From Candidatus Omnitrophota bacterium (GTDB taxonomy: Bacteria > Omnitrophota > Gorgyraeia > Duberdicusellales > 4484-171): a stretch of DNA of 64,000 bases. Location of the stretch: positions 1 through 64,000 of the forward strand of contig JAIPGM010000004.1 in the NCBI GenBank assembly GCA_021735655.1. Reading direction: 5' to 3'. The stretch's first letter is position 1. Each line of letters begins with the position of its first letter. Under the pieces are notes generated by a model. That model did no database searches. It was not told where the DNA came from and saw nothing but the letters and a program-made list of their open reading frames with translations. Below, in pieces: positions 24,364 to 36,814 of the stretch. Made by a program: the position numbers and the translations under genes.

Positions 24364-27300
24364 TTATTTCTTAAGAATCTGCCTTTCCTTAAACCAACAG
24401 TACAACACTGGGACCAAAATAAGGTTAGAAAGGGTAGCAGTAATCAGACCGCCTACAGTTGGTGAAGCCATTGGCCTCATAACTTCTGAACCGGTTCCGG
24501 TTGCTAACATAACCGGCAAAAGAGCAATAATTGTAGTTGCTGTAGTCATCATTGCCGGACGAAGGCGCAAGAGTCCAGCCCGGATGACTGTCTTTCGTAT
24601 TTCTTCAATAGTTTTGGGGACCTTCTCTCTAAACAAATTATCTAAAGTTGAAAGTAATACTACCGCATTATCAGTAGCCACACCGAACAAAGCAATGAAC
24701 CCCACCCAAACTGCAGTAGATAATCTAAGATCTAAAAAATATAGCAATATAAGGCCACCCATCAAAGACACTGGCAAACCAGTTGAAAGAATAATTAATG
24801 AACTAAAGTTCTTAAAAGCAATGTAAAGGAGCAAGAGAATAACCGTTAAGGCTATAATCAATGAAGGTATTAATCTTTTTCTCGACTCCATCTCTGATTC
24901 AAATTGGCCAGACCAGGAGATAAAATATCCTGAAGGTAATTTAAGACCCCCACTGCCAATTTTTTCCTGAACTGCTTTCTGAGCATTTTTCACAAAATCG
25001 ATCAAGCCAACCTTCTCCTGATCAACATTAATAAAAACCCTTGCATACATCAAAGTATTTTCGGCACTGATAACTGCCGGGCCCAAGACTTTCTTTAACT
25101 TTGCCAGTTGGGCCAAAGGAATGTGGCCGCCGGAAGAAGTTGGGACAAATATCCTCTTTAAGGCCTCAGGGCTCTCCCTAAGTTCACGTAAGTACCTGAT
25201 TCTTACCGGGTAACGCTCTCGGCCTTCAACAGTAGTAGTTATATTCATTCCACCGATTGCAGTCATAATAACATGCTGGATATCGGAAACTTTTATGCCG
25301 TAGCGAGCGGCCTGTTGACGGTCGATTTCTATTTCAAAATATGGCCGACTTGATGCCCGCTCAGCATAAGGACTCACTGCTCCGGGAACTTGCGCCACAA
25401 TTTTTTCAACCTGTATGCCAATATTAACTATTTTTTCTAAATCTGACCCAAAAACCTTAACCCCTACCGGAGTTTGGATTCCGGTCGCTAGCATATCAAT
25501 TCTATTTCGTATCGGTTGGGTCATAATCGGACTCACCCCGGGCATGCGAGTTTTTTCCTGAATCTCCTGAATTAATTTTTGCCGAGTCATACCAACACGC
25601 CAATCTTTTTTATCCTTTAAATGAATAATTGTTTCAATCATCAAAACCGGAGCCGGATCAGTTGCCGTCTCAGCCCGGCCTAATTTTCCAACCACCCACT
25701 CTACTTCGGGAATATCGCTTTTAATAATAAAATCCTGCTTTCGCATTATCTCCATAACCTGAGTTAGAGACGCTCCCGGTAATAGTACCGGCATAAATAA
25801 AAGATCCCCTTCATTTAAGGGCGGCATAAACTCCTGTTTCATGAGCGATCCACAAATAAGCCCAACTACTATCACCAAAATAGAAATTAGCACTATTATT
25901 TTCTTATGCCTCAATGCCCAGCTAATAGTTGGTTTATAGACTTTGCTTAATGCTCGAGCAGTTCTGTTTTCTTCAACCGGACGTAACTTACCGCGCAAAA
26001 AGTAATAACAAAGCGTGGGCAAAAGCACCAAAGCAATAACTGCAGCTGCAGCCATAGCAAAAGTCTTAGTAAAGGCAAGCGGTCTAAAGAGCTTTCCAGC
26101 CTGGCCAGTTAAGACGAAAACCGGGACAAAACCAACTATTGTGGTAAGCAAAGCAAATAAAACCGGCTTACCTACTTCTTGGGATGCGCTAATACAAGTA
26201 TTCAGTCTTTCTGAAGAAGAGAGTTTAGAAACTTTGAGCTCCTCTCTTTTCTCAACAATTCTCCGGTAAATATTTTCAACTAAGACACATCCCGAATCAA
26301 CCATAACTCCGATAGCTATAGCAATACCACCCAAAGACATAATATTAGCATCAACTCCAAATTGACGCATAAGTATAAAAGAAATTAACACTCCTATCGG
26401 AAGAACAATCGAAATGACTATGCTGCCGCCCAAATGTAATAAAAATATAATAATTACAAAAATGGTAATCAGGACTTCTTGACTCAAGGCTGTCTTTAAA
26501 GTGTCGATCGCCCGCAAAATTAAACCGGTACGGTCATAAAAAGGAACTACTTTAACTCCCTCAGGTAAGCCCACTGACAACTCTTTTATTTTTGACTTGA
26601 TTAGCTGGATGACTTTCAATGGATTCTCCCCGTAGCGCATAAGAATTACGCCACCGGTTACTTCCTTTCCTTGCTTATCCAGAGCTCCTCTTCTAAAATC
26701 TGAACCGATAGTAACCTTAGCGATATTCTTTACATATATCGGTACACCCCCTCGGGAATCAATTACAATATCTTCAATATCTTCAGTATTCTTAATAAAG
26801 CCCAAGCCCCTAACCACAAACTCAACCCCACCCTCTTCAAACACCTTTGCCCCGACATCGATGTTTGACTTTTTAACTGCACTAATAACTTGATGCAGCT
26901 TAACCTGGTGAGAAAAAAGCTTATTCGGATCTATATCTATCTGATACTGCTTAACATATCCGCCGACTGAAGCAACTTCTGACACCCCTTCAACCGAAGT
27001 TAGCTGATAACGAACATACCAGTCTTGAATCGAACGAAGCTCGGCCAAATCATAACCATCACCTTCTACTGTATACCAAAATATCTGACCCAAAGCAGTT
27101 GCGTCGGGCCCTAAAGTTACTGAAGCGTCCTTGGGAATATTTTTTTTGGCAAAGTCGAGGCGTTCCAAAACTCTGGTTCTAGCCCAATAAAAATCAGTTC
27201 CGTCTTCAAAAATCATATTAACTAAACCAAAGCCAAAGGCTGAAGTAGAGCGCACCACCTTTACCTTAGGTACTCCCATTAAACCAGTAGTTAAAGGATA

Positions 27301-27498
27301 GATAACTTGATCTTCAACATCTTTAGGACTTCTGCCCGGCCAATCAGCATAAACTAATATTTGAAGCTCACCGATATCGGGTATGGCATCTACCGGAATT
27401 TCTTTCATCGAAGAATAACCCCAAACAATTAGCAAAATAAAGGTAGCTATTACCAAGAAGCGATTCTTGAGAGCAATTTCAATAATTTTATTAATCAT
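24364..27498 (-). CDS. cusA: heavy-metal efflux RND pump (CusA/CzcA family)
   Basis: 1044 aa with 12 TM helices and two large periplasmic loops, typical of HME-RND. Follows the adaptor and OMF genes. Confidence 0.9.
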   Translation of the reverse strand: MINKIIEIALKNRFLVIATFILLIVWGYSSMKEIPVDAIPDIGELQILVYADWPGRSPKDVEDQVIYPLTTGLMGVPKVKVVRSTSAFGFGLVNMIFEDGTDFYWARTRVLERLDFAKKNIPKDASVTLGPDATALGQIFWYTVEGDGYDLAELRSIQDWYVRYQLTSVEGVSEVASVGGYVKQYQIDIDPNKLFSHQVKLHQVISAVKKSNIDVGAKVFEEGGVEFVVRGLGFIKNTEDIEDIVIDSRGGVPIYVKNIAKVTIGSDFRRGALDKQGKEVTGGVILMRYGENPLKVIQLIKSKIKELSVGLPEGVKVVPFYDRTGLILRAIDTLKTALSQEVLITIFVIIIFLLHLGGSIVISIVLPIGVLISFILMRQFGVDANIMSLGGIAIAIGVMVDSGCVLVENIYRRIVEKREELKVSKLSSSERLNTCISASQEVGKPVLFALLTTIVGFVPVFVLTGQAGKLFRPLAFTKTFAMAAAAVIALVLLPTLCYYFLRGKLRPVEENRTARALSKVYKPTISWALRHKKIIVLISILVIVVGLICGSLMKQEFMPPLNEGDLLFMPVLLPGASLTQVMEIMRKQDFIIKSDIPEVEWVVGKLGRAETATDPAPVLMIETIIHLKDKKDWRVGMTRQKLIQEIQEKTRMPGVSPIMTQPIRNRIDMLATGIQTPVGVKVFGSDLEKIVNIGIQVEKIVAQVPGAVSPYAERASSRPYFEIEIDRQQAARYGIKVSDIQHVIMTAIGGMNITTTVEGRERYPVRIRYLRELRESPEALKRIFVPTSSGGHIPLAQLAKLKKVLGPAVISAENTLMYARVFINVDQEKVGLIDFVKNAQKAVQEKIGSGGLKLPSGYFISWSGQFESEMESRKRLIPSLIIALTVILLLLYIAFKNFSSLIILSTGLPVSLMGGLILLYFLDLRLSTAVWVGFIALFGVATDNAVVLLSTLDNLFREKVPKTIEEIRKTVIRAGLLRLRPAMMTTATTIIALLPVMLATGTGSEVMRPMASPTVGGLITATLSNLILVPVLYCWFKERQILKK

Positions 27499-27509
27499 AA
27501 CTTATTAAT

Positions 27510-28688
27510 TTAATGTTGATGCCCGGCTGGCATCGATTCATCTTCTCCCAAAGCTCCTCCATAAGCTGAAGCTGCTGCGCCTAGCTGTGATTGAGAATCA
27601 ATTAAAAAATTTCCTTTTAAAACTACTGACTCTCCTTTTTCAGCTCCGGAAACTAATGGATAGAAATCCATGGTCATACCGTCAAGAACCCCTTGAGCTA
27701 GTGGCCCAACAACTACCTCCCTTAGTTGAAAACGCCCCTGGTCCAAATCAACATAGATAACTTTTCTTCTTCCAGTATCTAAAACCGCATCCTTGGGGAT
27801 ACTTAAAACCGAACCAAGATCACTTCTAAGCCAAACATCCACATACATATTAGGTTTTAGAATATTCCCTTCATTAGCAACTAAAATTTTAAGCCGCTCA
27901 GTTCTGGTTTTTTCCTTTATCACCGGTTCAATACTTTTAACTTCGCCTTTTAAAACAAGACTTGGATCAGCTTGCAAAGTTATCTCGACCAAATCTCCTT
28001 TTTGAGGCCAAATAATTTCATATTCATAAAACTCTGCATAAACCCACATATACTCATCAGGTAAAATTAAACTTCGGTCGGAAACTCCGGCTACTTCAAG
28101 CTCCTTAATCAAATCCTGATCCAAACCCAAAAGCTCAAGTTTTATCTTAGTAGCTTCAACTACATCTTGAGCTCTTTCTTTAGCATCTTCAAACCCCGAC
28201 TCAGAAACCTTTTTATAAGTATTAAGCGCTTGTAAATACTCTTCTTCGGCAGTTCTTAACTGAGGGTCGTGAGCGACAATCCCTACAGTCCGCATCTCTT
28301 TATATAAAGGTACCACCTCGACTTTGAAAGTCTCTACCCCGGCCAATTTCAGTTCGGTAGGGTTTATGGTAACAATGTTAGTTTTTTCCTGAACCATTTC
28401 TAAATCCTTACTACCGATTAAAGTATTTTGAGGAGTTGAATATATCGGAGTTAAATCCATAAAGCAAATCGGGCATTTATTATTTCCTTTTTCAAACTCT
28501 TGAGGACTCACTCTAACCGAAGGATGCATGCCGCAGGTGTAGTACAATATTTTTCTCTCCGGAGTTGCCTCTTCTGACATTTTCATACCACTCATTTGAT
28601 GGCCTTTATGTTTATTCAGATAAAGAAAGGCAATACTGGCGCCAGCTGCCAAAATAACTATTATAATTATCAATATTAATTTTTTCAT
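27510..28688 (-). CDS. cusB: efflux RND periplasmic adaptor with N-terminal heavy-metal-binding domain
   Basis: YYTCGMHPSV and CPICFMDL N-terminal metal-binding motifs, plus the membrane-fusion-protein fold. Length 392 aa. Confidence 0.8.
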   Translation of the reverse strand: MKKLILIIIIVILAAGASIAFLYLNKHKGHQMSGMKMSEEATPERKILYYTCGMHPSVRVSPQEFEKGNNKCPICFMDLTPIYSTPQNTLIGSKDLEMVQEKTNIVTINPTELKLAGVETFKVEVVPLYKEMRTVGIVAHDPQLRTAEEEYLQALNTYKKVSESGFEDAKERAQDVVEATKIKLELLGLDQDLIKELEVAGVSDRSLILPDEYMWVYAEFYEYEIIWPQKGDLVEITLQADPSLVLKGEVKSIEPVIKEKTRTERLKILVANEGNILKPNMYVDVWLRSDLGSVLSIPKDAVLDTGRRKVIYVDLDQGRFQLREVVVGPLAQGVLDGMTMDFYPLVSGAEKGESVVLKGNFLIDSQSQLGAAASAYGGALGEDESMPAGHQH

Positions 28689-28698
28689 TCCTTACCTC

Positions 28699-29964
28699 CT
28701 AAAGATCCTCCCCAATAATATACTCAATTTGAGCAACTGTCTTCATGTAATCTACAGTTTGTTTTAACTCGGCGATTTTTATAGAAATTACGCTTCTTTC
28801 AGCATCAAGAAAACTCAAAAAATCAACCACTCCATCTTCATAGCCAATACGTGATACCGAAAAATTATGCATGCTCTCAGGCAAGATTACATTCTTATAC
28901 AAATCAATAAGTTGCTCTTCAGTCTCCAGCCTAAAGTGTAAGTCCTCTATCTTGAATGATAAAAAGTTTTCCTTATCTTCAACTTGATACTCTTGAGCTT
29001 CTAGCTTTGCTTTTTCAGAACTAATCTCTGAACGTACTTTCCAAAACCACAAAGGAACTTTTACCTGAAAGCCAATCATCCAGGCATCCTGGCCGTCATT
29101 TTCAAGATTAGTGGTTCCGCCGCCGATATCGATATACTCAGCCATAATTCCGAAATCAGGAATATAGCCTTGCTTGGCTAAAGAAAACTTATCCTTTTGT
29201 TTCTCAAGCATTAAAAGATCAATGATTATATGAGGGCTTTCAGCATAAGCTTTATCTAATAACTCATTTTTATCGATGTTGACTCTCTGAGCCAGTAGCC
29301 TAAAACCTAAAGGAAGCTTAATATAACTATTTTGGGGCCGGTTCAAGATACGATTAATTTGAGCTCGAAGAAGGTTTTTTTGCTTGTTTAATTTCAAAAT
29401 TTTGTCTTCGATCTTAGCAATTTCTAAATCAACTTTCACCAAATCCTGCTGCGGGGCGGAGAGGGTTTCGTATTTACTCTTTATACTACTGCGAATACCT
29501 TCCAAGATCAACTTTTCAGCTTCCATGATGTGGACGGATTCAACGACGAAAAAATAATCATAAAAATAAGACTTCAAATTTTCTATAACCCCCCTTACCT
29601 CTAAAATATAACGGGCATAGGCCACTGCAGCCTCTTTCTGGGCTATGTCGCCTTTAAGCCAAAGTTTACCAGGATAAGGTATCGCTTGTTTTATGCTGTA
29701 TTTTCTCTTCATCGGACCAGCTTTAGTTTCGACTGACTCGCCCCAAAAACCAAAACCAACTTCCGGCTGAGGCAGGCTTCTCTCAGCGGTAATCCTGGCC
29801 TTCTTGGACTCCCATTCTTTATTTAAAGCCCTCAACTTAAGATTATTAACTAAAGCCTCATCAAGCAATAATTCTAAAGTGTCTCTCGTTTTATCTTGAG
29901 CAAAAACTGTCATCCTCAAGACAAAAACAAACATCAAAGAAACTACAAGCAATTTTTTCGTCAT
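28699..29964 (-). CDS. cusC: TolC-family outer membrane efflux protein
   Basis: Signal peptide followed by two OEP repeats. Length 421 aa. First gene of the CBA efflux triad. Confidence 0.8.
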   Translation of the reverse strand: MTKKLLVVSLMFVFVLRMTVFAQDKTRDTLELLLDEALVNNLKLRALNKEWESKKARITAERSLPQPEVGFGFWGESVETKAGPMKRKYSIKQAIPYPGKLWLKGDIAQKEAAVAYARYILEVRGVIENLKSYFYDYFFVVESVHIMEAEKLILEGIRSSIKSKYETLSAPQQDLVKVDLEIAKIEDKILKLNKQKNLLRAQINRILNRPQNSYIKLPLGFRLLAQRVNIDKNELLDKAYAESPHIIIDLLMLEKQKDKFSLAKQGYIPDFGIMAEYIDIGGGTTNLENDGQDAWMIGFQVKVPLWFWKVRSEISSEKAKLEAQEYQVEDKENFLSFKIEDLHFRLETEEQLIDLYKNVILPESMHNFSVSRIGYEDGVVDFLSFLDAERSVISIKIAELKQTVDYMKTVAQIEYIIGEDL

Positions 29965-30242
29965 AGCTTATTCAATCTTTTTATTATACTGATTATCTCA
30001 CTTATTTTTTGTTGCTTATCCTTTTCCGATCTGCCGCTCAGGGCATCGACTACGCAATGCTCCATATGCTTAGAAAGTATCTTTTCAGCAACTCTGCGTA
30101 GGGCGCCGATTGAAGCATATACTTGAGTAGCAATATCAATACAATACTTCTTATCGTCAATCATTTTCTGGATACCTTTAACTTGGCCTTCAATTCGTTT
30201 CAAAGCAATTAAATTCTCTTGGTGAGTTGTCTTGTGGGGCAT
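29961..30242 (-). CDS. csoR: CsoR/RcnR family metal-sensing repressor (Cu(I)-type C-H-C site)
   Basis: 93 aa with a C-x24-H-x3-C ligand arrangement (KYC...SKHMEHC), matching CsoR W-X-Y-Z positions. Confidence 0.75.
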   Translation of the reverse strand: MPHKTTHQENLIALKRIEGQVKGIQKMIDDKKYCIDIATQVYASIGALRRVAEKILSKHMEHCVVDALSGRSEKDKQQKISEIISIIKRLNKL

Positions 30243-30247
30243 ATTAC

Positions 30248-30970
30248 CTACCTCCTGTTTAATTTTATCCTATCTAGAATGGGATTGAAACAATTGGCTA
30301 GAAATAGTGAGCCGATAAAGAAATCATAGCCAGGGAATAGCTTGAAAATAAGAAAAGAAAAAATGCCGGCTAAGCTTCCAAAAATGAACCCTCGTAGAGC
30401 TCCGAAACCCGAGGTCTTAGGCTCAATAAGCATAATAAACAAAAAGAAAAAACTCAAAATACTAAAAGGATTTACTCTTTCGAGAACGAAAAGAGATAAA
30501 AAGAAAACTAAGAACCCTAAAATATGCGGGATTTTCTTAAAAACATAAGCCAGATAAATCCCCACAACTATAATTAAAAAAATGTTAGCTTCGATATGCC
30601 AGGTAAGCGGCAATCGAAAAAGAACGGCTAAAAAAAGAGCGAAATTAGCTGGATTAAATAGGTGTTTTTTTCTAAATCTTAAAAGGTGTTTAGAAACAAT
30701 GGCTAGTAAAGAAAAAATAACTAGTATATAAAAAGCCTGATGATAATCCAAAACTCCTGAAACAATAAATCCGGTAATTAGGGCGCTTTTGACTGAAACC
30801 CTGCGCCTAGAAAATACTTTATTTATATAATAATCAGCCAGACTGGCGCTAACCAGTCCACCTAGAACCCAAAACAGAAAGCGCAATCCCTCTTGAACGG
30901 CCATCATTAACGATAGCGCGCTCAAAAGGACGATTACGATATTTTTCTTGTCTTTTAAAAATTTTCTCAT
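30248..30970 (-). CDS. hypothetical polytopic membrane protein (6-8 TM, several His; FNPA motif reminiscent of the RnfD/NqrB family)
   Basis: Hydrophobic 240 aa ORF embedded in the copper operon. Contains [11 protein letters not shown]. No firm family assignment. Confidence 0.35.
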
Positions 30971-31524
30971 TCTTTAACTATTAACTTAGCCTTCATGCTA
31001 TGATGGCCTCTTCCGCAATAAACTGAACAGAGAATCGGAAATTCCCCTGCTTCTTTAGCAATAAACTCTATTTTTCTAGTTTCCCCTTTTTTAACTGTGA
31101 CGTTTATATTGTATTCCTTAATATAGACTCCATGAGGTACATCCCGGGAACTAGCCAGAATTCTTACTATGTCACCTTTTTCTACAACGATCTCCTCTGG
31201 CTCAAAACCAAACTGATAGGCTTCTAATTCAAACTCTTTAATTTTAGAGATATACTTCTCAGGATCCTTCTTAAATTCATCGACGCAGGAAGGGCAACAA
31301 AAATAATAAGTTTTTCCCTGATGAGTGTATGAATATTCTTTGCTAGCCTCTCCTCCCATAACCGGGCAAATTCCTAAATTGTCTTCGGATCTAACTGCCT
31401 TTTCATCCGTCATCTGCTTATTGGTATGATTATCCATGTCGTGGTGATGATGATCCATGTCTTGAGCATAACCCAAACTCAGATTCAAAAAAATAATTAA
31501 ACCAAACAAAACTACTCTTTTCAT
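30967..31524 (-). CDS. secreted His-rich YHS-domain / CuA-type cupredoxin fusion protein
   Basis: Signal peptide, then a His tract [15 protein letters not shown] motif CPVMGG...[11 protein letters not shown]...DPEKY. C-terminal HGVY...(38 aa)...[12 protein letters not shown], which matches the COX2/N2OR CuA motif H...CxxxCGxxHxxM. Confidence 0.65.
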
Positions 31525-31565: not shown

Positions 31566-32261
31566 CTACTCTACTATTTCAACCTCAAACTCAACATTTA
31601 TTGTTGAATATACCGGGTCGTTGCTCTTAATTGTGACCGACCTTGCCATATGGCCTAATTTAACATGGGGGTGGTCTAAATCGGTTACAATGATCAACTT
31701 TCCTTCTTCGGCAGGCGCAAGATCAGCTTTCCAACTACTTTTTAAATTCTCCATATTCATTGAAAAAGCCGGACTCTCGCTTTTTTTCGTCTTTAGCCTG
31801 ACTGTCGTGCACCCGCAGCTAGTCTTAAGTTCATTAATGGTCAGCGCCGTATTGCCTTTATTCTTTACCTTGACCGCTAACTCTAATTTACCCTTACTCT
31901 TACTGACCTTTCCTAAATCGTATGCCAAAGGCTTAATAAAAATCTCTGGCCGCTTTGCTCCGGCTTCCTCTATTAGCTTTTTCTCGACCACCTTTTTAGT
32001 TTTAAAGTCGATTATGCTATCAAGAGAATATTTTTTAGCTATTTTTAGCATAATCTCCTCTTCCCCCAGGCCAGCCTCTAAAAAGGCGTCTATGTAAGCT
32101 TTCATCTCTTTAGCGTGAGCACAAGTGCAGGAAATAAAAGATTTGCCGCACTTGCAACATTCCAATTTAGAATAAATGTCTTCTTTGGCCCCGGCAAAAA
32201 CAGTACTGCTAAAAAACGCAACCAGTAAAACAAAAACAATAACTTTTAATTTTTTACTCAT
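31566..32261 (-). CDS. secreted Cys-rich protein with C-terminal DUF1573 domain
   Basis: Signal peptide. Cys cluster ECCKCGKSFISCTCAH. The DUF1573 hallmark motif (TSCGCTT) lies mid-protein in LAVKVKNKGNTALTINELKTSCGCTTV, with about 80 residues following it. Confidence 0.6.
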   Translation of the reverse strand: MSKKLKVIVFVLLVAFFSSTVFAGAKEDIYSKLECCKCGKSFISCTCAHAKEMKAYIDAFLEAGLGEEEIMLKIAKKYSLDSIIDFKTKKVVEKKLIEEAGAKRPEIFIKPLAYDLGKVSKSKGKLELAVKVKNKGNTALTINELKTSCGCTTVRLKTKKSESPAFSMNMENLKSSWKADLAPAEEGKLIIVTDLDHPHVKLGHMARSVTIKSNDPVYSTINVEFEVEIVE

Positions 32262-33378
32262 CGTTCTCTCCTCCTTCTACCGGATAGCCGGCATCTTCCC
32301 AGGCGCCAAAGCCATCCTCAAAAACCTTGATTCTTCCCGGCTTAAAACCATTCTTGATCAAAATTCTTCCGGCACTCATACTGGCATCGCACTTTCCTCC
32401 GTCCCAGGTACCTTCACAATAAAAAACCACCTCTTTATCAGGTGATATTTTATCAAGATTGTATTCTAAATCTGAAAGCGGAATACCCAGAGCGTCTTTA
32501 ACATGCCCGGCCGAATAATCATCCTTATTTCTAACATCAACCCAAATAATATCCTTAAACAATAAAAAGTAATGTTCGTAAGCTTCCTCTAGGTGGACTA
32601 TGGCCGGTTCTTGGCTAGCCGGTAACTTTGGCCCGCGAATTAAAGGATAACCTTTTTTCTCCCAAAAAGAGATACCGTCTAAGTTGTAAGCGTTGTAACC
32701 CTTCTGCCGCAGCTTCTTGGTTATGTAACTGCTTCTATGGCCGGCTCCGCAATAAGAAACTAGAGGTGTTTCTTTGTCGATGTCCTGAAGTTTAGCTAAA
32801 ACATTCTCATCATTGCGGTCGAACCTGCTTTTAGGAAACCATACGGCCTCGGGGATGTGCCGTTCAATATATTCATTCTCTTCCCTTACGTCTAAAATAA
32901 CTATTTTTTGTTCCTTCCCTAACCGTTCATAGAGCTCAGTTGAGCTAAGGCTGGGTATCTTGGAAATGTTTTTCTGGCCAAAGGATGCCTTAGGCCCAAT
33001 CTCAGCTGAAATACTAAATTTTAACTTGGGCTGGGAGAGATCATTAGAAACAAGGTAGATATATTTCTCGTCTTTGCCGGGCTGCTTGCCTTGAGGATTG
33101 TAAATTACTTTTAATTCTGCCTTAACTCCGGCTGGTATTCGGTTAGAAGAAATCTCAGCAGTAGTACAACCGCAGGTAGTATAGACTTTCTCAATAACCA
33201 GATCCTCATCCCCGACATTCTCTACCGTAAAAATCTTCTCTTTTCTCTGGCTTTCCTCTATCTTGCCAAAATCCCAGTAATTTGAATCAACCCTAATATT
33301 GGGGCCGGATTTTCCGGCGGCTTCTTGGCTGAAAAATAAAGAAAAAAACAATAATAAATAAAGCAATTTTTTCATCAA
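32254..33378 (-). CDS. secreted DUF1573 domain + tandem rhodanese-domain protein (putative sulfurtransferase)
   Basis: Signal peptide, then N-terminal DUF1573 (VYTTCGCTT). First rhodanese has the active loop YCGAGHRSS. A second rhodanese-like domain carries YCEGTWDGGKCDASMSAGR. Length 374 aa. Confidence 0.65.
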   Translation of the reverse strand: MMKKLLYLLLFFSLFFSQEAAGKSGPNIRVDSNYWDFGKIEESQRKEKIFTVENVGDEDLVIEKVYTTCGCTTAEISSNRIPAGVKAELKVIYNPQGKQPGKDEKYIYLVSNDLSQPKLKFSISAEIGPKASFGQKNISKIPSLSSTELYERLGKEQKIVILDVREENEYIERHIPEAVWFPKSRFDRNDENVLAKLQDIDKETPLVSYCGAGHRSSYITKKLRQKGYNAYNLDGISFWEKKGYPLIRGPKLPASQEPAIVHLEEAYEHYFLLFKDIIWVDVRNKDDYSAGHVKDALGIPLSDLEYNLDKISPDKEVVFYCEGTWDGGKCDASMSAGRILIKNGFKPGRIKVFEDGFGAWEDAGYPVEGGENDE

Positions 33379-33617
33379 TCAGCTTCCTTTTTCTGCTTTC
33401 CTTCATGACAGCTCTTAGGAACTTTTCCGCTGCCTTTGGCAATCCAGTTTAAGAATCCATCAGTGGGCTTTCTCCTAAGATAATCTCCAATATTCTCCTG
33501 GAAAGTAGCTTTGCAGGCTTGACAATCAAAATAATAAGTTTTTCCCTGATGAGAAAAAAAATATTCCGTATTTTTACTCACCCTTACTCCGCATACGGGA
33601 TCCCGTTTTTTAAACAT
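33375..33617 (-). CDS. YHS-domain protein
   Basis: DPVCGV...GKTYYFDCQACKATF, a canonical YHS/TRASH motif. Length 80 aa. Immediately downstream of copA. Confidence 0.7.
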   Translation of the reverse strand: MFKKRDPVCGVRVSKNTEYFFSHQGKTYYFDCQACKATFQENIGDYLRRKPTDGFLNWIAKGSGKVPKSCHEGKQKKEAD

Positions 33618-33630
33618 TTTTAACCTCCAA

Positions 33631-36111
33631 TTATATTGCCCGCTTGTACCTTCGCATCAACAAAGAATTAGATACTACGCTGACCGAACTAAAGGCCATG
33701 GCTGCGCCGGCAATCATCGGGTTCAATAAAAACCCAAATATTGGATAAAGTATACCGGCAGCAACCGGTATACCGGCAGCATTATAAAAGAAAGCCCAGA
33801 AAAGATTCTGTTTTATCTTCTTCATCGCATAATGCGATAAATCCATAGCCATAACCACATCGCGCAGGTCATCCTTAATCAATACTATGTCGCCGGATTC
33901 AATAGCTACATCGGTTCCGCTGCCGATAGCCAACCCAATATCAGCCTGAGTTAAAGCCGGGGCATCATTTATACCGTCGCCGACCATAGCTACTTTTAAA
34001 CCTTCAGCCTGAAGCTTCTTGACTTCATTAGCTTTATCTTTAGGCAGGACTTCGGCTAAAACCCGCTTAATACCCAGTTGTTTGGCTATGGCTTGGCCGG
34101 TGCGTTTGTTATCGCCGGTAATCATAATCACCTGTTTTTTCATCTGTTTCAATTTAGCCACTGCCGCTTTAGAAAATTCCTTCAAAGTATCGGCTACGGC
34201 GATAATTCCGATTAGCTTATCGGCAGCAGCTACCAGCATAGCGGTTTTCCCTTCGTTCTCTAATTTTTCTAAATCTTTTTCTGCTTTTAAAATATCGATA
34301 TTCTCTTCCTCCATAAACTTTCGATTACCCAGTAAAACTCTTACTCCCTCTACCCGGGCCAATACGCCTTTGCCGGTGATTGAGTTAAAATCAGTGATTG
34401 CTTTTAATTCTATAGCCTTATCTTTGGCTCCTTTTACAATTGCTTCAGCCAGAGGATGCTCAGAACTTTTCTCCACCGACGCCGCTAAACACAATACTTC
34501 ACTATCAGCTTTATCATAAGCTACCACATCTGTAATTTGCGGTTCTCCCTTGGTAAGTGTACCGGTCTTATCAAAAACTATTGCTTGAATTTGATGGGCT
34601 AGCTGAAGGCTTTCGGCACTCTTGATCAATATGCCGTTTTCTGCCCCTAAACCGGTCCCGACCATTACGGCAGTCGGGGTAGCTAAGCCCAAAGCACAGG
34701 GACAGGCAATAATTAAAACGGCAATGAAAATAGTTAAAGCAAAAACAAACCCCTGGCCAACAGCCAGCCAGATAATAAAAGCTAAGATAGCAATTCCTAC
34801 TACTGCCGGCACAAAATAGGCTGATATCTTATCGGCTAATTCCTGAATTGGCGCCTTAGACCCCTGGGCTTCTTCGACCAATCTGATGATCTGAGCCAAA
34901 GCCGTATCTTTGCCGACTTTGGTAGCTTTAAACTTAAAACTACCGGTTTTATTTATGGTAGCTCCGATAACCTGGCTGCCTTTAGATTTTTCAACCGGGA
35001 TACTTTCTCCGCTGATCATTGACTCATCCACGCTGGAATAGCCGTCTGTTACTTGGCCGTCAACCGGAATTTTTGCTCCCGGCCTGACTATGACAATATC
35101 GCCGGCTATTACTTCTTCTACCGAAACCTCCTGCTCCTTACCGTTACGTAAAACCAGGGCTTTTTTCGCTTGAAGGCCCATGAGTTTTTTTATCGCCTCA
35201 GAAGTTTTACCTTTAGCGATTGATTCTAAAAACTTACCTAACAAGATAAAAGCAATCAAGAATCCAGCAATCTCATAATAAAGATTTTTCATATCAAAAG
35301 CAGATGAGCCCGACCAGATCACTATCGAAACATATAAACTATAAAGGTAAGCTGCTCCCACACCTAAAGCCACCAAAGTATCCATGTTCGCAGTATGGGT
35401 TTTAATCACTGCCGAAAAACCTCGAGTAAAAAACTGATAGCCGGCAAACATAATCGGAGTAGCCAGGAGAAACTGAATCAAAGCCATATTATTTACCATC
35501 CAGGAAGCAAGAGGCAGTTTTAACCCCGAACTCATCGCAAAATACATCAGCGGCGCAGCCAGAATAATCGAAACTATAAACTTAAGTTTAAGAATTCTTA
35601 TCTCCCTTTCTCGAGTTTCTTTTTCTAAATCCGGGGTGGCTTTTTCTTGCTCAATCGGCTCATAGCCAGCGGCTTTAATTACGGCTTTAATCTTCTCGGC
35701 AGAAAGAATAGCCGGATCAAATTTAATCTTTGCCCGCTGGTTCACCAATAACTCTTTGCTGGTTATCCCCTTAAGGCTGTTTAGGGCTCCCTCTACCGTG
35801 CTAAGGCAATGAGGGTTGTCCATACCGATAACTTTAAGCTCTAACAGGCCTGCGGTTTTCTTATTGCCGGCTACCTTGTAGCCGGTTTTCTCTATAGCCT
35901 TATGCAAAACCTCCAAATTAACTTTACCGGAATCATAGTCAACATAAGCCTTTTCGCTGGCAAAATTAACCCTGGCTTGTTTTACTCCCGGAGTTTTTTT
36001 CAAGGCACCTTCAATAGTTGCCACACAGCTCGCACAGTGCATACCGCTTATACTGATAACCGTCTTACTTAAACCAGACATAGATTTACCCTCTCCTTTC
36101 GTTATCCGCAA
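33631..36111 (-). CDS. copA: copper-translocating P1B-type ATPase with two N-terminal HMA domains
   Basis: Two HMA CxxC motifs ([15 protein letters not shown]). TM CPC motif ([11 protein letters not shown]). DKTGT phosphorylation site and GDGINDAP. Length 826 aa. Confidence 0.95.
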
Positions 36112-36140: not shown

Positions 36141-36533
36141 TTAATGATGAGCCTCATGTCCGGAAGGCATTTCTTTTTCACTGTTTTTTCTGCCCTGGCC
36201 GGCATCATCTTTACCCATCATCGGACAACTTTTCATCATTTCTTTCATCATTTGCCGCATTCCTTCGCTATCGATGCTTAGCTCAACCTCTTTCACCAAA
36301 TTTAACTTTTTATCATATTTAACAAGCTTATTGCCTAAAAGCAACACTACCCCTCCATCTTCAGTGGCCACTAATTGTTTTTTAACCATCATCTGCATCA
36401 TACCTTTTCCCATCATACTCTTGCTCATCATACCTTTATCCATCATCTCTGAAGAATGTTCTTCAGCAAAAACAGAAAAGTTAACAACAACCAACAGCAA
36501 ACTACCTAAAACAATACCGGTAAACCGCTTCAT
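36141..36533 (-). CDS. secreted methionine-rich putative Cu(I)-binding protein
   Basis: Signal peptide, multiple MxxM/MM motifs ([20 protein letters not shown]; [14 protein letters not shown]) and a C-terminal HEAHH. Resembles PcoE/SilE/CusF-type Met-rich sites. Confidence 0.55.
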
Positions 36534-36534
36534 C

Positions 36535-36723
36535 TTACGCCTCCTTTTTTAATCCGGGAATAAAAGCCGGAACCCGTTTTCTGTACTCCAGAAATTCCCA
36601 GTCGAACTGCTTCTCGACTTCTTTTTCCTCTCTCATCGCTAACTTGTAGTAAACCGACACAAGAACCGGCCACATCCCGTATGCATAACTGTCTAAACCT
36701 TCTCCAGGCATATTTATCTTCAT
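36535..36723 (-). pseudogene. remnant (C-terminal about 60 aa) of an ICMT/CzcN-like isoprenylcysteine carboxyl methyltransferase family gene
   Basis: The 62 aa ORF ...REEKEVEKQFDWEFLEYRKRVPAFIP matches the conserved C-terminus (EE..L...FG.eY.eY...VP.fIP) of the ICMT/PEMT family, to which CzcN belongs. It is preceded immediately by an in-frame TAA. There is no N-terminal TM/catalytic region. A second ORF in another frame (36530-36748) overlaps it. Confidence 0.45.
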
Positions 36724-36784: not shown

Positions 36785-36814
36785 ATGATACCACACCCCC
36801 CTATGGTATGTCAA
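36785..36814 (-). promoter_or_regulatory. sigma70-like promoter with CsoR-type operator at the head of the copper operon
   Basis: On the minus strand: TTGACA (36809-36814), an 18-nt spacer, TATCAT (36785-36790). The inverted repeat ATACCA-CACCCCCCTA-TGGTAT (36788-36809) fills the spacer. A G/C tract flanked by ATACC/GGTAT resembles known CsoR operators. Confidence 0.5.

Follow-up and report, generated by a model that had tools for sequence, protein, structure and literature searches.

A secreted YHS–CuA cupredoxin and an RnfD-like membrane protein in a predicted CsoR-controlled copper cluster of an Omnitrophota bacterium

The gene described here encodes a putative periplasm-exported copper-stress protein, and its transcription within a CsoR-controlled copper cluster is well supported by the arrangement and upstream sequence of its neighbors. 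From the N- to the C-terminus the protein carries three predicted copper-handling modules in a row, i.e. a His-rich tail, a YHS domain and a cupredoxin, the last of which is predicted to hold every ligand of the binuclear CuA site in B-family oxidase subunit II. The protein appears to be translationally coupled to a 240-aa inner-membrane protein related to RnfD (mini-RnfD, or Mem240), and this pair is conserved in Omnitrophota, Elusimicrobiota, Saganbacteria and Ignavibacteria, beside CusCBA, CsoR and CopA. Tentatively, we read the two proteins as a possible redox and hand-off module for copper, and this is our leading reading; a role purely as a Cu(I) sink or chaperone is almost as probable. 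In the literature searched, no description was found of a YHS–CuA protein or of its gene pair with an RnfD-like protein.

A copper cluster with a CsoR-type operator

The gene sits within an 11-gene same-strand cluster that includes CopA, a YHS protein, DUF1573/rhodanese proteins, the target itself, the membrane protein, CsoR and CusCBA. All positions are those of the window, by which we mean the whole 64,000-nt stretch of DNA that was analyzed, and the basis of each assignment is given in brackets.

36785..36814, minus strand: promoter-like TTGACA-18-TATCAT with an overlapping predicted CsoR-type operator, ATACCATAGGGGGGTGTGGTAT, at 36788–36809 (pattern match)
36141..36533, minus strand: opening gene of the cluster; its 130-aa product is secreted and Met-rich, with MMxKGMM repeats and HEAHH at the C-terminus (ORF translation)
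33631..36111, minus strand: CopA, a Cu(I)-exporting P1B ATPase with two HMA domains (NCBIfam TIGR01511, 636 bits vs a cut-off of 397)
33375..33617, minus strand: 80-aa YHS-domain protein without a signal peptide (Pfam YHS, E 2e-11)
32254..33378, minus strand: secreted protein with DUF1573 and two rhodanese domains (Pfam, NCBIfam)
31566..32261, minus strand: secreted DUF1573 protein with a Cys-rich N-terminal segment, CCKCGKSFISCTCAH (Pfam, translation)
30967..31524, minus strand: YHS–CuA cupredoxin gene, secreted, 185 aa, with its stop codon at 30967–30969
30248..30970, minus strand: mini-RnfD membrane protein, 240 aa (AF2, Foldseek, Pfam)
29961..30242, minus strand: CsoR-family repressor, Cys34 … His58-x3-Cys62 (Pfam Trns_repr_metal, E 2e-25; residues read from the sequence)
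24364..29964, minus strand: RND copper efflux pump CusCBA, with CusC at 28699–29964, CusB at 27510–28688 and CusA at 24364–27498 (Pfam for CusB; orthologs)

An earlier, sequence-only reading of this DNA had placed the cupredoxin in a copper-resistance operon; the gene content agrees with that view, and the CsoR-type operator strengthens it. The copper sensor RicR is the best NCBIfam match of the CsoR-family repressor, and the two features that define a CsoR regulon, a repressor carrying C34, H58 and C62 and a predicted operator at the promoter, are both present. CusA orthologs (74–86%) adjoin target homologs in related loci, with the Pfam labels OEP, RND and ACR_tran. The first gene of the cluster has no match in Pfam or NCBIfam, and its product may take part in copper binding, judging from its composition. 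Neither cusF nor a multicopper oxidase was seen in the cluster by ORF translation and Pfam. A 62-aa ORF between the promoter and the first gene (36535–36723), suspected of being a gene remnant, was dropped, having no Pfam match.

The promoter-like element is the best sigma-70-like match between 24000 and 37000 (11/12, with TG ahead of the second hexamer). CsoR operators are described as G-tract pseudopalindromes of the form TAC-N9-GTA (PMC3902906), a pattern that the box overlapping this promoter fits. It was located by reading the upstream sequence and then with a looser pattern, while the strict form TACCC-N(2–10)-GGGTA gave no match in the window, the actual box having one degenerate arm. 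The same 20-mer is seen again in related loci; the operator recurs upstream of a target homolog or of csoR in 16 of them, and in eight related loci (L003, L004, L009, L015, L021, L028, L083 and L084) the operator lies directly upstream of the target homolog, at a distance of 40–90 nt.

A CuA-type site in a secreted YHS protein

The target ORF (30967..31524, minus strand) starts with ATG, with AGGAGG about 8 nt upstream, and its 185 residues divide as follows.

31462..31524, minus strand: predicted signal peptide, residues 1–21, ending …LSLGYA and followed by QD (read from the sequence)
31375..31461, minus strand: disordered tail, residues 22–50, rich in His, Met, Asp and Glu (pLDDT <50 for residues 20–46)
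31246..31374, minus strand: YHS/TRASH domain, residues 51–93, C53-x2-M56 … C76-C77-x2-C80 (Pfam; pLDDT >93)
30970..31245, minus strand: CuA-type cupredoxin domain, residues 94–185 (Thermus CuA alignment, Foldseek, ligand conservation)
31132–31134 and 30994–31029, minus strand: H131 codon and loop C166–M177, both within the CuA-type cupredoxin domain

The fusion of a His-rich tract and a YHS domain to a cupredoxin, recognized previously from the letters, is borne out by domain scans and by the sequence itself. In the Pfam scan the YHS match PF04945 reached E 5e-11 (42.7 bits vs a cut-off of 30.3) and Cupredoxin_1 PF13473 scored 35.1 bits (cut-off 27), with COX2 PF00116, at 22.9 bits, barely over its cut-off of 22, and Copper-bind, at 19.0, under its threshold of 21.2. 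The YHS part contains GICPVMGG and YYFCCPSC, the cupredoxin part contains DVPHG, and the protein ends in KE. The cleavable signal peptide is replaced by a lipobox in some homologs. Across the target family the tail holds 13.5% His and 8.4% Met, vs 2.2% and 1.9% in the folded part, and at least three His residues occur in the tails of 83 of 119 members.

Conservation was followed over 121 target homologs of 49–96% identity. Each of the YHS residues C53, C76, C77 and C80, and each of the cupredoxin residues H131, C166, C170, H174 and M177, is found in 120–121 of the 121, so that the pattern is no chance effect. M56, a Met where the classical C-x2-C has its second Cys, is kept in 94.

Alignment to the CuA domain of Thermus ba3 subunit II (1ehk_B, 2cua) with HMMER was gapless over 85 residues, of which 33 (39%) are identical, at E 4e-15. 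H131, C166, C170, H174 and M177 correspond to His114, Cys149, Cys153, His157 and Met160 of the Thermus protein, and V168 to the backbone ligand Gln151, so that all six CuA positions coincide. The AlphaFold model of the target (pLDDT >93 over residues 50–185) superimposes on 2cua with 0.9 Å rmsd over 92 columns (E 8e-12), and its top Foldseek matches are CuA domains. The proposal of a binuclear CuA ligand set, made from sequence alone, is upheld by this positional equivalence, and its His…Cys spacing does match that of CuA (His114–Cys149 in Thermus), with the figure given then, 38, corrected to 34. A nitrosocyanin-like red copper site was also considered for the target and rejected, as the PDB match (E 2e-9) stops before the second Cys and the full CuA loop is present.

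CuA domains outside oxidases and N2O reductases had been called rare, which holds for studied proteins and fails for sequence data, where secreted CuA-motif cupredoxins are common, making up 88 of the best 150 representatives at 50% identity. The domain is also modular among the related loci: two neighboring genes encode YHS and CuA separately in L029 and L032, long Met/His linkers connect the two domains in L030, L035 and L036, and in L031 the CuA domain is fused to an ArsP_1 permease that has a vicinal-Cys motif (Pfam E 2e-46, plus Cupredoxin_1/COX2).

The RnfD-like membrane partner

The stop codon of the target overlaps the ATG of the 240-aa membrane protein in the sequence ATGA. This conserved RnfD-like neighbor had been missed in the sequence-only reading. 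The AF2 model of mini-RnfD (pLDDT 91.4) matches RnfD (9eri_D) in Foldseek with a TM-score of 0.80 (E 2e-7) and NqrB with 0.66, and a mini-RnfD profile search of the PDB found RnfD at E 0.003. PF03116 scores 26.4 bits on the protein, just under its cut-off of 27.7, and 68 bits on a paralog. Mini-RnfD combines the RnfD/NqrB membrane fold with the motifs of the family (FNPA; M-x2-[DE]-P-x-T). In databases, members of the mini-RnfD family are labeled 'hypothetical protein' or, mistakenly, 'RnfD' or 'NqrB'.

The RnfD/NqrB proteins studied so far are redox subunits onto which a periplasmic flavoprotein (RnfG/NqrC) docks. Mini-RnfD shares their fold, and RnfD too is encoded alongside a small periplasm-facing redox protein; mini-RnfD is, however, about 70–170 residues shorter, has no adjacent Rnf or Nqr subunits, and is paired with a copper protein where RnfD and NqrB have a flavoprotein. 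The SGAT/TGAT flavinylation motif is found neither in its sequence nor in the family consensus, and the loop where RnfD bears covalent FMN is lacking. Because of the missing motif, and because its neighbors are copper genes and not rnf or nqr, we regard mini-RnfD as a relative of Rnf and Nqr proteins and not as a subunit of either complex. The protein contains no Cys, and the conserved residues H103 and W124 give no more than a hint of a cofactor. The RnfD/NqrB fold is also related to the urea, Rh and Amt (ammonium) channels.

A Mem240 homolog lies directly downstream of the target homolog in about 22 related loci and, seen from the other side, an ORF with the motif CxxxCxxxHxxM ends 17–134 nt upstream of 37 out of 40 close Mem240 homologs. 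About one third of the related loci have no Mem240 beside the target, with CsoR coming directly after it in L004, L005, L007, L015 and L021, so that the target can apparently work without that neighbor. DoxX or DoxD-like proteins (the latter belonging to the TQO small-subunit family) come after the CuA gene in L006, L027, L046 and L050.

The conserved residues of Mem240 are common to paralogs that are paired with a small secreted His3Cys protein in Rrf2/Hcp/flavodiiron loci, and the membrane core is therefore not copper-specific. Superoxide reductase was tried as an identity for the 115-aa partner of these paralogs and set aside as a faint lead: one member gave a sub-threshold Desulfoferrodoxin match (E 7e-4), a single-sequence PDB search returned nothing, and a nine-sequence profile reached SOR only at E 1.5.

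Possible functions and their meaning

As a redox and hand-off module, the target would catch Cu(II) with its His-rich tail, the copper would be reduced to Cu(I), and the YHS thiolate site would accept the Cu(I) and hand it on to CusB and CusCBA, exporters of Cu(I) only. The CuA centre would serve as a one-electron relay, beyond mere storage, and mini-RnfD, or a DoxX protein in other genomes, would link it to a membrane or cytoplasmic reductant. The potential of CuA, about +240 mV, lies above those of quinols, which favors the reductive direction. The cupredoxin of CupA, which falls in the same family PF13473, has no counterpart of the His pair in the CuA set of the target, so that a pure chaperone need not retain ligands of the electron-transfer type. 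There is good support for the identity and regulation of the target, whereas electron transfer and the direction it takes are what we infer.

Several observations weigh against such a module. Without Cys or SGAT, mini-RnfD offers no assignable redox cofactor, and in about a third of the loci it is not adjacent at all; its kinship with urea and ammonium channels makes a channel role possible. The fusion of CuA to an ArsP-type permease in L031 resembles metal trafficking more than electron transfer, and His/Met tails, like YHS domains, are what one expects of a binding protein. For the partner of the paralogs, the resemblance to superoxide reductase falls short of significance.

A serious contender is a periplasmic Cu(I) sink or metallochaperone like CusF, CupA or CopI, in which at least three Cu per protein would be buffered or passed to CusB, the site would stay Cu(I)–Cu(I) with no electron flow, and mini-RnfD would serve as anchor or channel, or be co-regulated but unrelated. 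The target belongs to PF13473, by which the Cu(I) chaperone CupA has been retrieved, and CupA, with its cupredoxin fold, itself binds copper as a binuclear cluster (PMC7558416); the tails are rich in His and Met as in CopI, the cluster is without cusF, the loci without an adjacent Mem240 are easily accommodated, and high expression under predicted CsoR control fits a stoichiometric binder. This reading has to reckon, however, with the invariance of every CuA ligand, both His and the axial Met included, and with the 39% identity to an electron-transfer-competent CuA, in a set that CupA has lost. A CuA site, being buried and kinetically inert, is moreover poorly suited to donating copper. A sink would also leave the near-obligate and apparently translationally coupled membrane partner without explanation.

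Known copper proteins resemble the target in part. CupA of Streptococcus pneumoniae (4f2e, 2mry) likewise has a PF13473 cupredoxin fold and is encoded in a copper-export operon; its ligands are Cys…CxMxM (PMC5552934), it binds two coppers via a bridging cysteine and is reported to reduce Cu(II) in vitro. The target differs in being exported, in its full CuA set and in having no CxMxM, and the similarity of the two is marginal (E 0.013). CopI of Rubrivivax gelatinosus, a periplasmic cupredoxin needed for copper tolerance, has His/Met-rich regions comparable to the target tail, but by its description it is plastocyanin-like and binds a single copper, which would set it apart from a protein with a two-Cys CuA loop, a YHS domain and a membrane partner. 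Like the target, CusF and CopG are small copper proteins of the periplasm whose genes accompany cusCBA or copA, but their folds are unrelated to it, CusF being of the OB type and CopG thioredoxin-like with a Cu4 cluster; neither family was found in the target by Pfam, CusF being absent from its matches at E ≤ 0.01. CupA and CopG are precedents for copper redox conversion at the periplasmic or chaperone level (PMC7558416). How CopI and CopG act has yet to be settled.

Inner-membrane metal trafficking, on the pattern of CopC–CopD or YcnI–YcnJ, appears improbable. The YHS–CuA protein would here bind copper for a permease (mini-RnfD, an ArsP-type protein or DoxX) that moves it into or out of the cytoplasm, as the ArsP_1 permease–CuA fusion in L031, the resemblance of the RnfD/NqrB fold to urea, Rh and Amt channels, and the conserved pairing of a periplasmic binder with a membrane protein might suggest. 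Mini-RnfD, however, lacks both Cys and the kind of Met cluster usual in Cu(I) pathways, the core conserved in it recurs in paralogs from non-copper stress loci, and an inert CuA centre would be an odd site from which to donate a substrate.

We give still less credence to an oxygen-independent cuprous oxidase, in which Cu(I) at the YHS domain or tail would be oxidized via CuA and the electrons would pass to the membrane partner, as a substitute for a CueO-type multicopper oxidase in low-oxygen habitats. Its architecture would be identical to that of the redox and hand-off module, the cluster is without a multicopper oxidase, and CopG, which matters under anaerobic conditions, has been proposed to interconvert Cu(I) and Cu(II), including oxidation of Cu(I) (PMC7558416). 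Cus and CopA export Cu(I), however, and its oxidation would oppose these co-encoded pumps. Cu(I) with thiolate and thioether ligands is also hard to oxidize, and low-potential quinones are poor acceptors.

It is very improbable that the gene is an orphan or displaced B-family oxidase subunit II, or a donor to an N2O or NO reductase, that merely lies near copper genes, even with ba3 and Aquifex oxidase subunit II as its nearest solved structures, 'cytochrome c oxidase subunit 2' among the automatic JGI names, and NosZ CuA domains as the best partial NCBIfam matches, for which only the last 80–100 positions are covered (36–56 bits vs cut-offs of 625–700) in a target of just 185 aa. A check for a displaced subunit found no COX1 or NosZ by Pfam among the ten largest ORFs of the window (sugar enzymes, EF-G, FeoB, an antiporter, aminotransferases and a secretin) or in the Pfam-annotated ±10 kb of the related loci L001 and L002, and a regex for the subunit I signature HPxVY…HH, a crude scan run without a positive control, had 0 matches in 162 loci and the window; such an origin is thus unlikely. 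No CuA-motif ORF in the target loci exceeds 402 aa. The target shares with Thermus thermophilus ba3 subunit II the cupredoxin fold and the spacing His-34-Cys-x3-Cys-x3-His-x2-Met, but it is a secreted protein that, judging from its sequence, starts with a cleavable signal peptide or a lipobox, without the membrane-anchoring helix of subunit II and with no subunit I nearby; it also carries a fused YHS domain and His-rich tail, is predicted to be copper-regulated by the CsoR-type operator ahead of the gene, and lies in efflux loci whose Cus/CsoR/CopA synteny is kept across phyla.

CuA centres are known from textbooks as the points where electrons enter cytochrome oxidase and N2O reductase, and to our knowledge no canonical single-chain CuA site with another job has been characterized. 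PmoD, with a non-canonical dimeric site, is the one natural outlier found in the literature: PmoD and AmoD are, like the target, periplasmic cupredoxins with a CuA-type centre outside COX and N2OR (PMC6189053), but the PmoD site lies across a homodimer and has non-canonical ligands, and the protein has a C-terminal membrane helix and is encoded in pmo/amo operons, whereas the target would form a canonical site in a single chain. A canonical CuA domain thus appears to have been recruited to the copper-stress operons of several uncultivated phyla, under the predicted operator of a copper sensor and tied to an RnfD-like protein. The mature target, at 164 residues, should suit easy expression and testing by color and EPR.

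More doubtful than the redox and hand-off module itself is a wider proposal, that the CuA cupredoxin and the flavin-motif-less mini-RnfD form an unrecognized two-protein inner-membrane redox conduit to or from periplasmic copper, i.e. a dedicated Cus-coupled copper reductase or oxidase. A sister module, made of a mini-RnfD paralog and the His3Cys protein, would then serve in oxidative or nitrosative stress, and the scheme would extend to the many small secreted CuA cupredoxins that come after DoxX-type proteins in CPR bacteria and DPANN archaea. Whichever reading holds, the mini-RnfD family gains a genomic context. If the target is redox-active, it would allow the redox state of periplasmic copper to be set independently of oxygen, an issue for anaerobes, where multicopper oxidases cannot work. 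If the target is only a binder, the CuA scaffold would be reusable as a Cu(I) sink; if the redox conduit is true, CuA centres would have a physiological role outside respiration.

The copper cluster and its CuA-type cupredoxin

The gene for the secreted YHS–CuA cupredoxin (the target) lies in a run of eleven minus-strand genes whose neighbors overlap or are separated by at most 41 nt, and the copper-resistance operon that had been proposed around it is borne out by CopA, CsoR and CusCBA on the same strand.

Genes of the copper cluster
36141–36533, minus: Met-rich secreted protein, first gene of the cluster
33631–36111, minus: CopA
33375–33617, minus: 80-aa YHS protein
32254–33378, minus: secreted protein with DUF1573 and two rhodanese domains
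31566–32261, minus: secreted Cys-rich DUF1573 protein
30967–31524, minus: target YHS–CuA cupredoxin, 185 aa, ATG start, AGGAGG about 8 nt upstream
30248–30970, minus: 240-aa membrane protein (mini-RnfD)
29961–30242, minus: CsoR
28699–29964, minus: CusC
27510–28688, minus: CusB
24364–27498, minus: CusA

Among the remaining ORFs of the window, the ten largest include neither oxidase subunit I nor NosZ. The first gene encodes a secreted protein of 130 aa with MMxKGMM repeats, a CPMMG motif and, at its C-terminus, GHEAHH; it matches no Pfam or NCBIfam family and may be a periplasmic copper binder, rich in Met, that takes the place of CusF. The N-terminal YTCGMHP…CPICFMDL heavy-metal-binding motif of CusB (HMBD, under the Pfam threshold) and its C-terminal MPAGHQH could plausibly serve a periplasmic copper donor as a docking or acceptor site. 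Two secreted DUF1573 proteins are placed between CopA and the target, the Cys-rich segment of one (31566–32261) reading CCKCGKSFISCTCAH; NCBIfam ties the pair weakly to 'OS_HP2' and rhodanese (seleno)protein families, and their homologs stand beside the target only in two of the related loci fetched for comparison (L003 and L012). YHS domains recur across loci (L035 9023–11308, L029 8445–8864 and L145 4829–5992, within-locus coordinates, as well as the window), as the free cytoplasmic 80-aa protein after CopA, and N-terminally on CopA-like ATPases and on an ArsP-type permease.

From the N-terminus, the target comprises a signal peptide (cut before QD), an acidic His-rich tail, a YHS domain containing GICPVMGG, and a beta domain in which DVPHG is followed, after a 34-residue spacing, by a loop near the C-terminus. 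Pfam matches are to YHS (42.7 bits, cut-off 30.3), Cupredoxin_1 (35.1 bits, cut-off 27) and, barely above threshold, COX2 (22.9 bits, cut-off 22). No NCBIfam model covers the whole protein; matches there are confined to the CuA ends of models for NosZ, CoxB and nitrosocyanin and fall far under the cut-offs. The fusion of a His-rich tract, a YHS domain and a CuA-type cupredoxin described in the sequence-only reading is upheld, with all its other features present and the spacing from His to first Cys corrected from 38 to 34.

Residues 101–185 of the target align without gaps to the Thermus CuA domain, with 33 of 85 positions identical, and H131, C166, V168, C170, H174 and M177 fall on His114, Cys149, Gln151, Cys153, His157 and Met160 of the ba3 subunit II structure 1ehk_B. 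In Thermus CuA, Cys153 and His157 are ligands and Gln151 is a backbone ligand. The numbering of His114, Cys149 and Met160 agrees with a published description of the site (PMC6115626). An AlphaFold2 model built from 121 sequences has pLDDT >93 from residue 50 to the end, with a disordered tail, and Foldseek places it on the Thermus structure 2cua at 0.9 Å rmsd over 92 columns (36% identity), followed by Aquifex oxidase subunit II, NosZ CuA domains, uncharacterised Bacillus anthracis 'Cupredoxin_1' structures and nitrosocyanin. Because the ligands coincide and the model superposes on 2cua, the non-equivalence that would have spoken against the claimed CuA ligand set does not hold; judged by alignment and predicted structure, the site is positionally equivalent to CuA and the C-terminal domain belongs among the CuA cupredoxins.

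Conservation of the family and its membrane partner

A word-indexed protein search with the target returned 209 proteins, the best 120 of which all carry YHS and Cupredoxin_1. Most of these 120 belong to Omnitrophota, Elusimicrobiota or unclassified bins from groundwater or sediment, and their labels go no further than 'YHS domain-containing protein', 'cupredoxin domain-containing protein' or, where assigned automatically, 'cytochrome c oxidase subunit 2' or 'nitrosocyanin'. The motif C-x3-C-x3-H-x2-M is present in 120/120 of these best homologs. Across 121 aligned sequences, each of the five CuA side-chain ligands and each of the four YHS cysteines is conserved in 120–121; where the classical TRASH domain has its second cysteine, 94 have Met and 16 have Leu. 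Homolog tails vary in sequence, but are rich in His (13.5%) and Met (8.4%) compared with the folded part (2.2% and 1.9%). On these sequence comparisons the target represents a family and not a one-off. When 1.84 billion 50%-identity representatives were scanned exhaustively with HMMER, 38 clusters reached E ≤ 1e-30, and 88 of the best 150 representatives had the full CuA motif; 70 of these 88 have no recognisable YHS domain and are mostly secreted proteins or lipoproteins of 119–200 aa. The description of CuA domains outside oxidases and N2O reductase as rare is therefore true of studied proteins, but not of sequences. Small secreted or lipoprotein CuA-motif cupredoxins lacking YHS also occur in bins labelled Parcubacteria, Woesearchaeota and Methanosarcinales.

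Small CuA-motif cupredoxins lacking YHS (within-locus coordinates)
L006 10560–10955
L027 4264–4659
L046 2118–2483
L050 11561–12025
L042 9905–10297

The stop codon of the target overlaps the start codon of mini-RnfD (ATGA). A mini-RnfD homolog comes directly after the target in about 22 of the roughly 35 informative loci, representing at least four phyla, and the overlap frequently recurs. In a reverse test, with the mini-RnfD alignment searched against metagenome contigs, an ORF ending in the CuA motif lay 17–134 nt upstream in 37 of 40 homologs with at least 45% identity and upstream sequence. The two genes form a near-obligate pair (window 30248–30970, minus; L003, L009, L013, L014, L016, L017, L024, L025, L029, L031, L032, L036; L083–L133), and this partner was overlooked when the target was called stand-alone. 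Database labels for mini-RnfD are 'hypothetical protein' and occasionally 'RnfD' or 'NqrB', and an entry identical to the window copy comes from a Candidatus Omnitrophica bin; its model (pLDDT 91.4) matches RnfD (TM 0.80, E 2e-7) and NqrB (TM 0.66), with weaker matches to urea, Rh and Amt channels, and sequence profiles agree with the RnfD/NqrB assignment. RnfD and NqrB are 70–170 residues longer, and [ST]GAT, the flavin-attachment motif, is absent from mini-RnfD and its family consensus.

None of 26 mini-RnfD relatives at 30–37% identity has a CuA gene upstream; in 22 of these 26 paralogs an overlapping downstream gene encodes a 115-aa secreted protein in which His23, His45, His53 and Cys102 are invariant (L136 5983–7073; L140; L145 5995–7091; L162 5992–7109; also L036 9476–9850), and the similarity of this small protein to superoxide reductase is not significant (Pfam E 7e-4, one member; PDB E 1.5). 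By Pfam, the paralog loci encode an Rrf2 regulator, ArsP-type and CitMHS/ArsB-type permeases and an Fe-S protein, and further genes are read from sequence as hybrid-cluster protein, flavodiiron protein and neelaredoxin. The membrane core of the copper-linked subfamily (K94, H103, FNPA, W124, MLIEPKT, D216, N226) is common to the paralogs; I126, E127 and N129 of the periplasmic loop, and H149, are specific to that subfamily. The mini-RnfD family may thus be a generic membrane module serving different small periplasmic metalloproteins.

Genomic context and probable copper regulation

In 80 loci from species-representative genomes, queried with the window's proteins, CusA, CusB and CusC mostly lie within 10 kb of a full-length homolog, with CsoR adjoining it in many loci and CopA in several. 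Two Pfam-annotated loci, one from a complete Omnitrophota chromosome and one from an Elusimicrobia contig, share this copper-gene context, and neither contains COX1 or NosZ within ±10 kb. In L029 and L032, neighboring but separate genes encode YHS and CuA, with mini-RnfD after both, and long Met/His-rich linkers connect the two domains in L030, L035 and L036. In L031 (9104–10312) an ArsP_1–CuA fusion of 402 aa, a 'predicted permease' with the vicinal-Cys motif LPVCCWG and a C-terminal CuA domain, precedes mini-RnfD; this predicted product physically links a CuA domain to a membrane transporter. A DoxX or DoxD-like membrane protein replaces mini-RnfD after the CuA protein in L006, L027, L046 (a Methanosarcinales bin) and L050 (a Woesearchaeota bin), and CsoR directly follows the target homolog in five loci. 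Given these variants, the constant element, judged by gene order, is a CuA cupredoxin that is secreted and, in most cases, accompanied by a small membrane protein. A DsbA-like thioredoxin is encoded near the CuA gene in L050.

Putative regulatory sites upstream of the first gene
36814..36785, minus: promoter-like TTGACA-18-TATCAT, the region's best match
36788–36809: CsoR-type operator ATACCATAGGGGGGTGTGGTAT, a pattern match overlapping the promoter-like site

This site conforms to CsoR operators, G-tract pseudopalindromes with TAC-N9-GTA arms (PMC3902906). The 20-mer TACC[CA]TAGGGG[GA]GTATGGTA lies 40–90 nt 5' of the homologous YHS–CuA gene itself in eight loci (L003 9945, L004 9919, L009 9917, L015 7092, L021 9110, L028 9959, L083 5412, L084 3274) and precedes csoR in six more, which is good, though indirect, evidence that the target gene belongs to the CsoR copper regulon.

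A possible electron relay to copper

We tentatively favor a role in which the CuA center would pass electrons one at a time between the membrane partner and copper on the same polypeptide, most plausibly reducing tail-held Cu(II) to Cu(I), which the YHS thiolates would hand to CusB/CusCBA. This relay is favored because the electron-transfer-type ligand set is intact, whereas the chaperone CupA, of the same Pfam family, dropped it; because RnfD/NqrB and DoxX/DoxD, the families of the partners, are related to subunits of redox complexes; and because the Cus pump encoded alongside transports only Cu(I). Doubt comes from mini-RnfD having no assignable cofactor and being missing in a third of loci, and a pure Cu(I) sink or chaperone, the main rival, is nearly as likely. 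The permease–CuA fusion and channel-like mini-RnfD fold suit metal trafficking, which also weighs against the relay and fits a CopC/CopD-like transport pair, an unlikely reading overall; a Cu(I) oxidase is slightly less likely still. A respiratory subunit is very improbable: the target was rejected as part of an oxidase or N2O reductase, since the features of such membership were looked for, in the protein, the large ORFs of the window and related loci, and found lacking.

The functionally nearest studied proteins are CupA, CopI, CopG and CusF, and PmoD has the nearest studied CuA-like site outside oxidases, but in none of them does a canonical CuA site within one chain occur together with a YHS domain and an RnfD-like partner; our literature search found no description of a YHS–CuA protein or of a cupredoxin/mini-RnfD gene pair. 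What could turn out to be categorically new is the hypothesis of a CuA/mini-RnfD gene pair, and the functional reading, purely computational, would bear on bioinorganic copper chemistry and on copper homeostasis in anaerobes.
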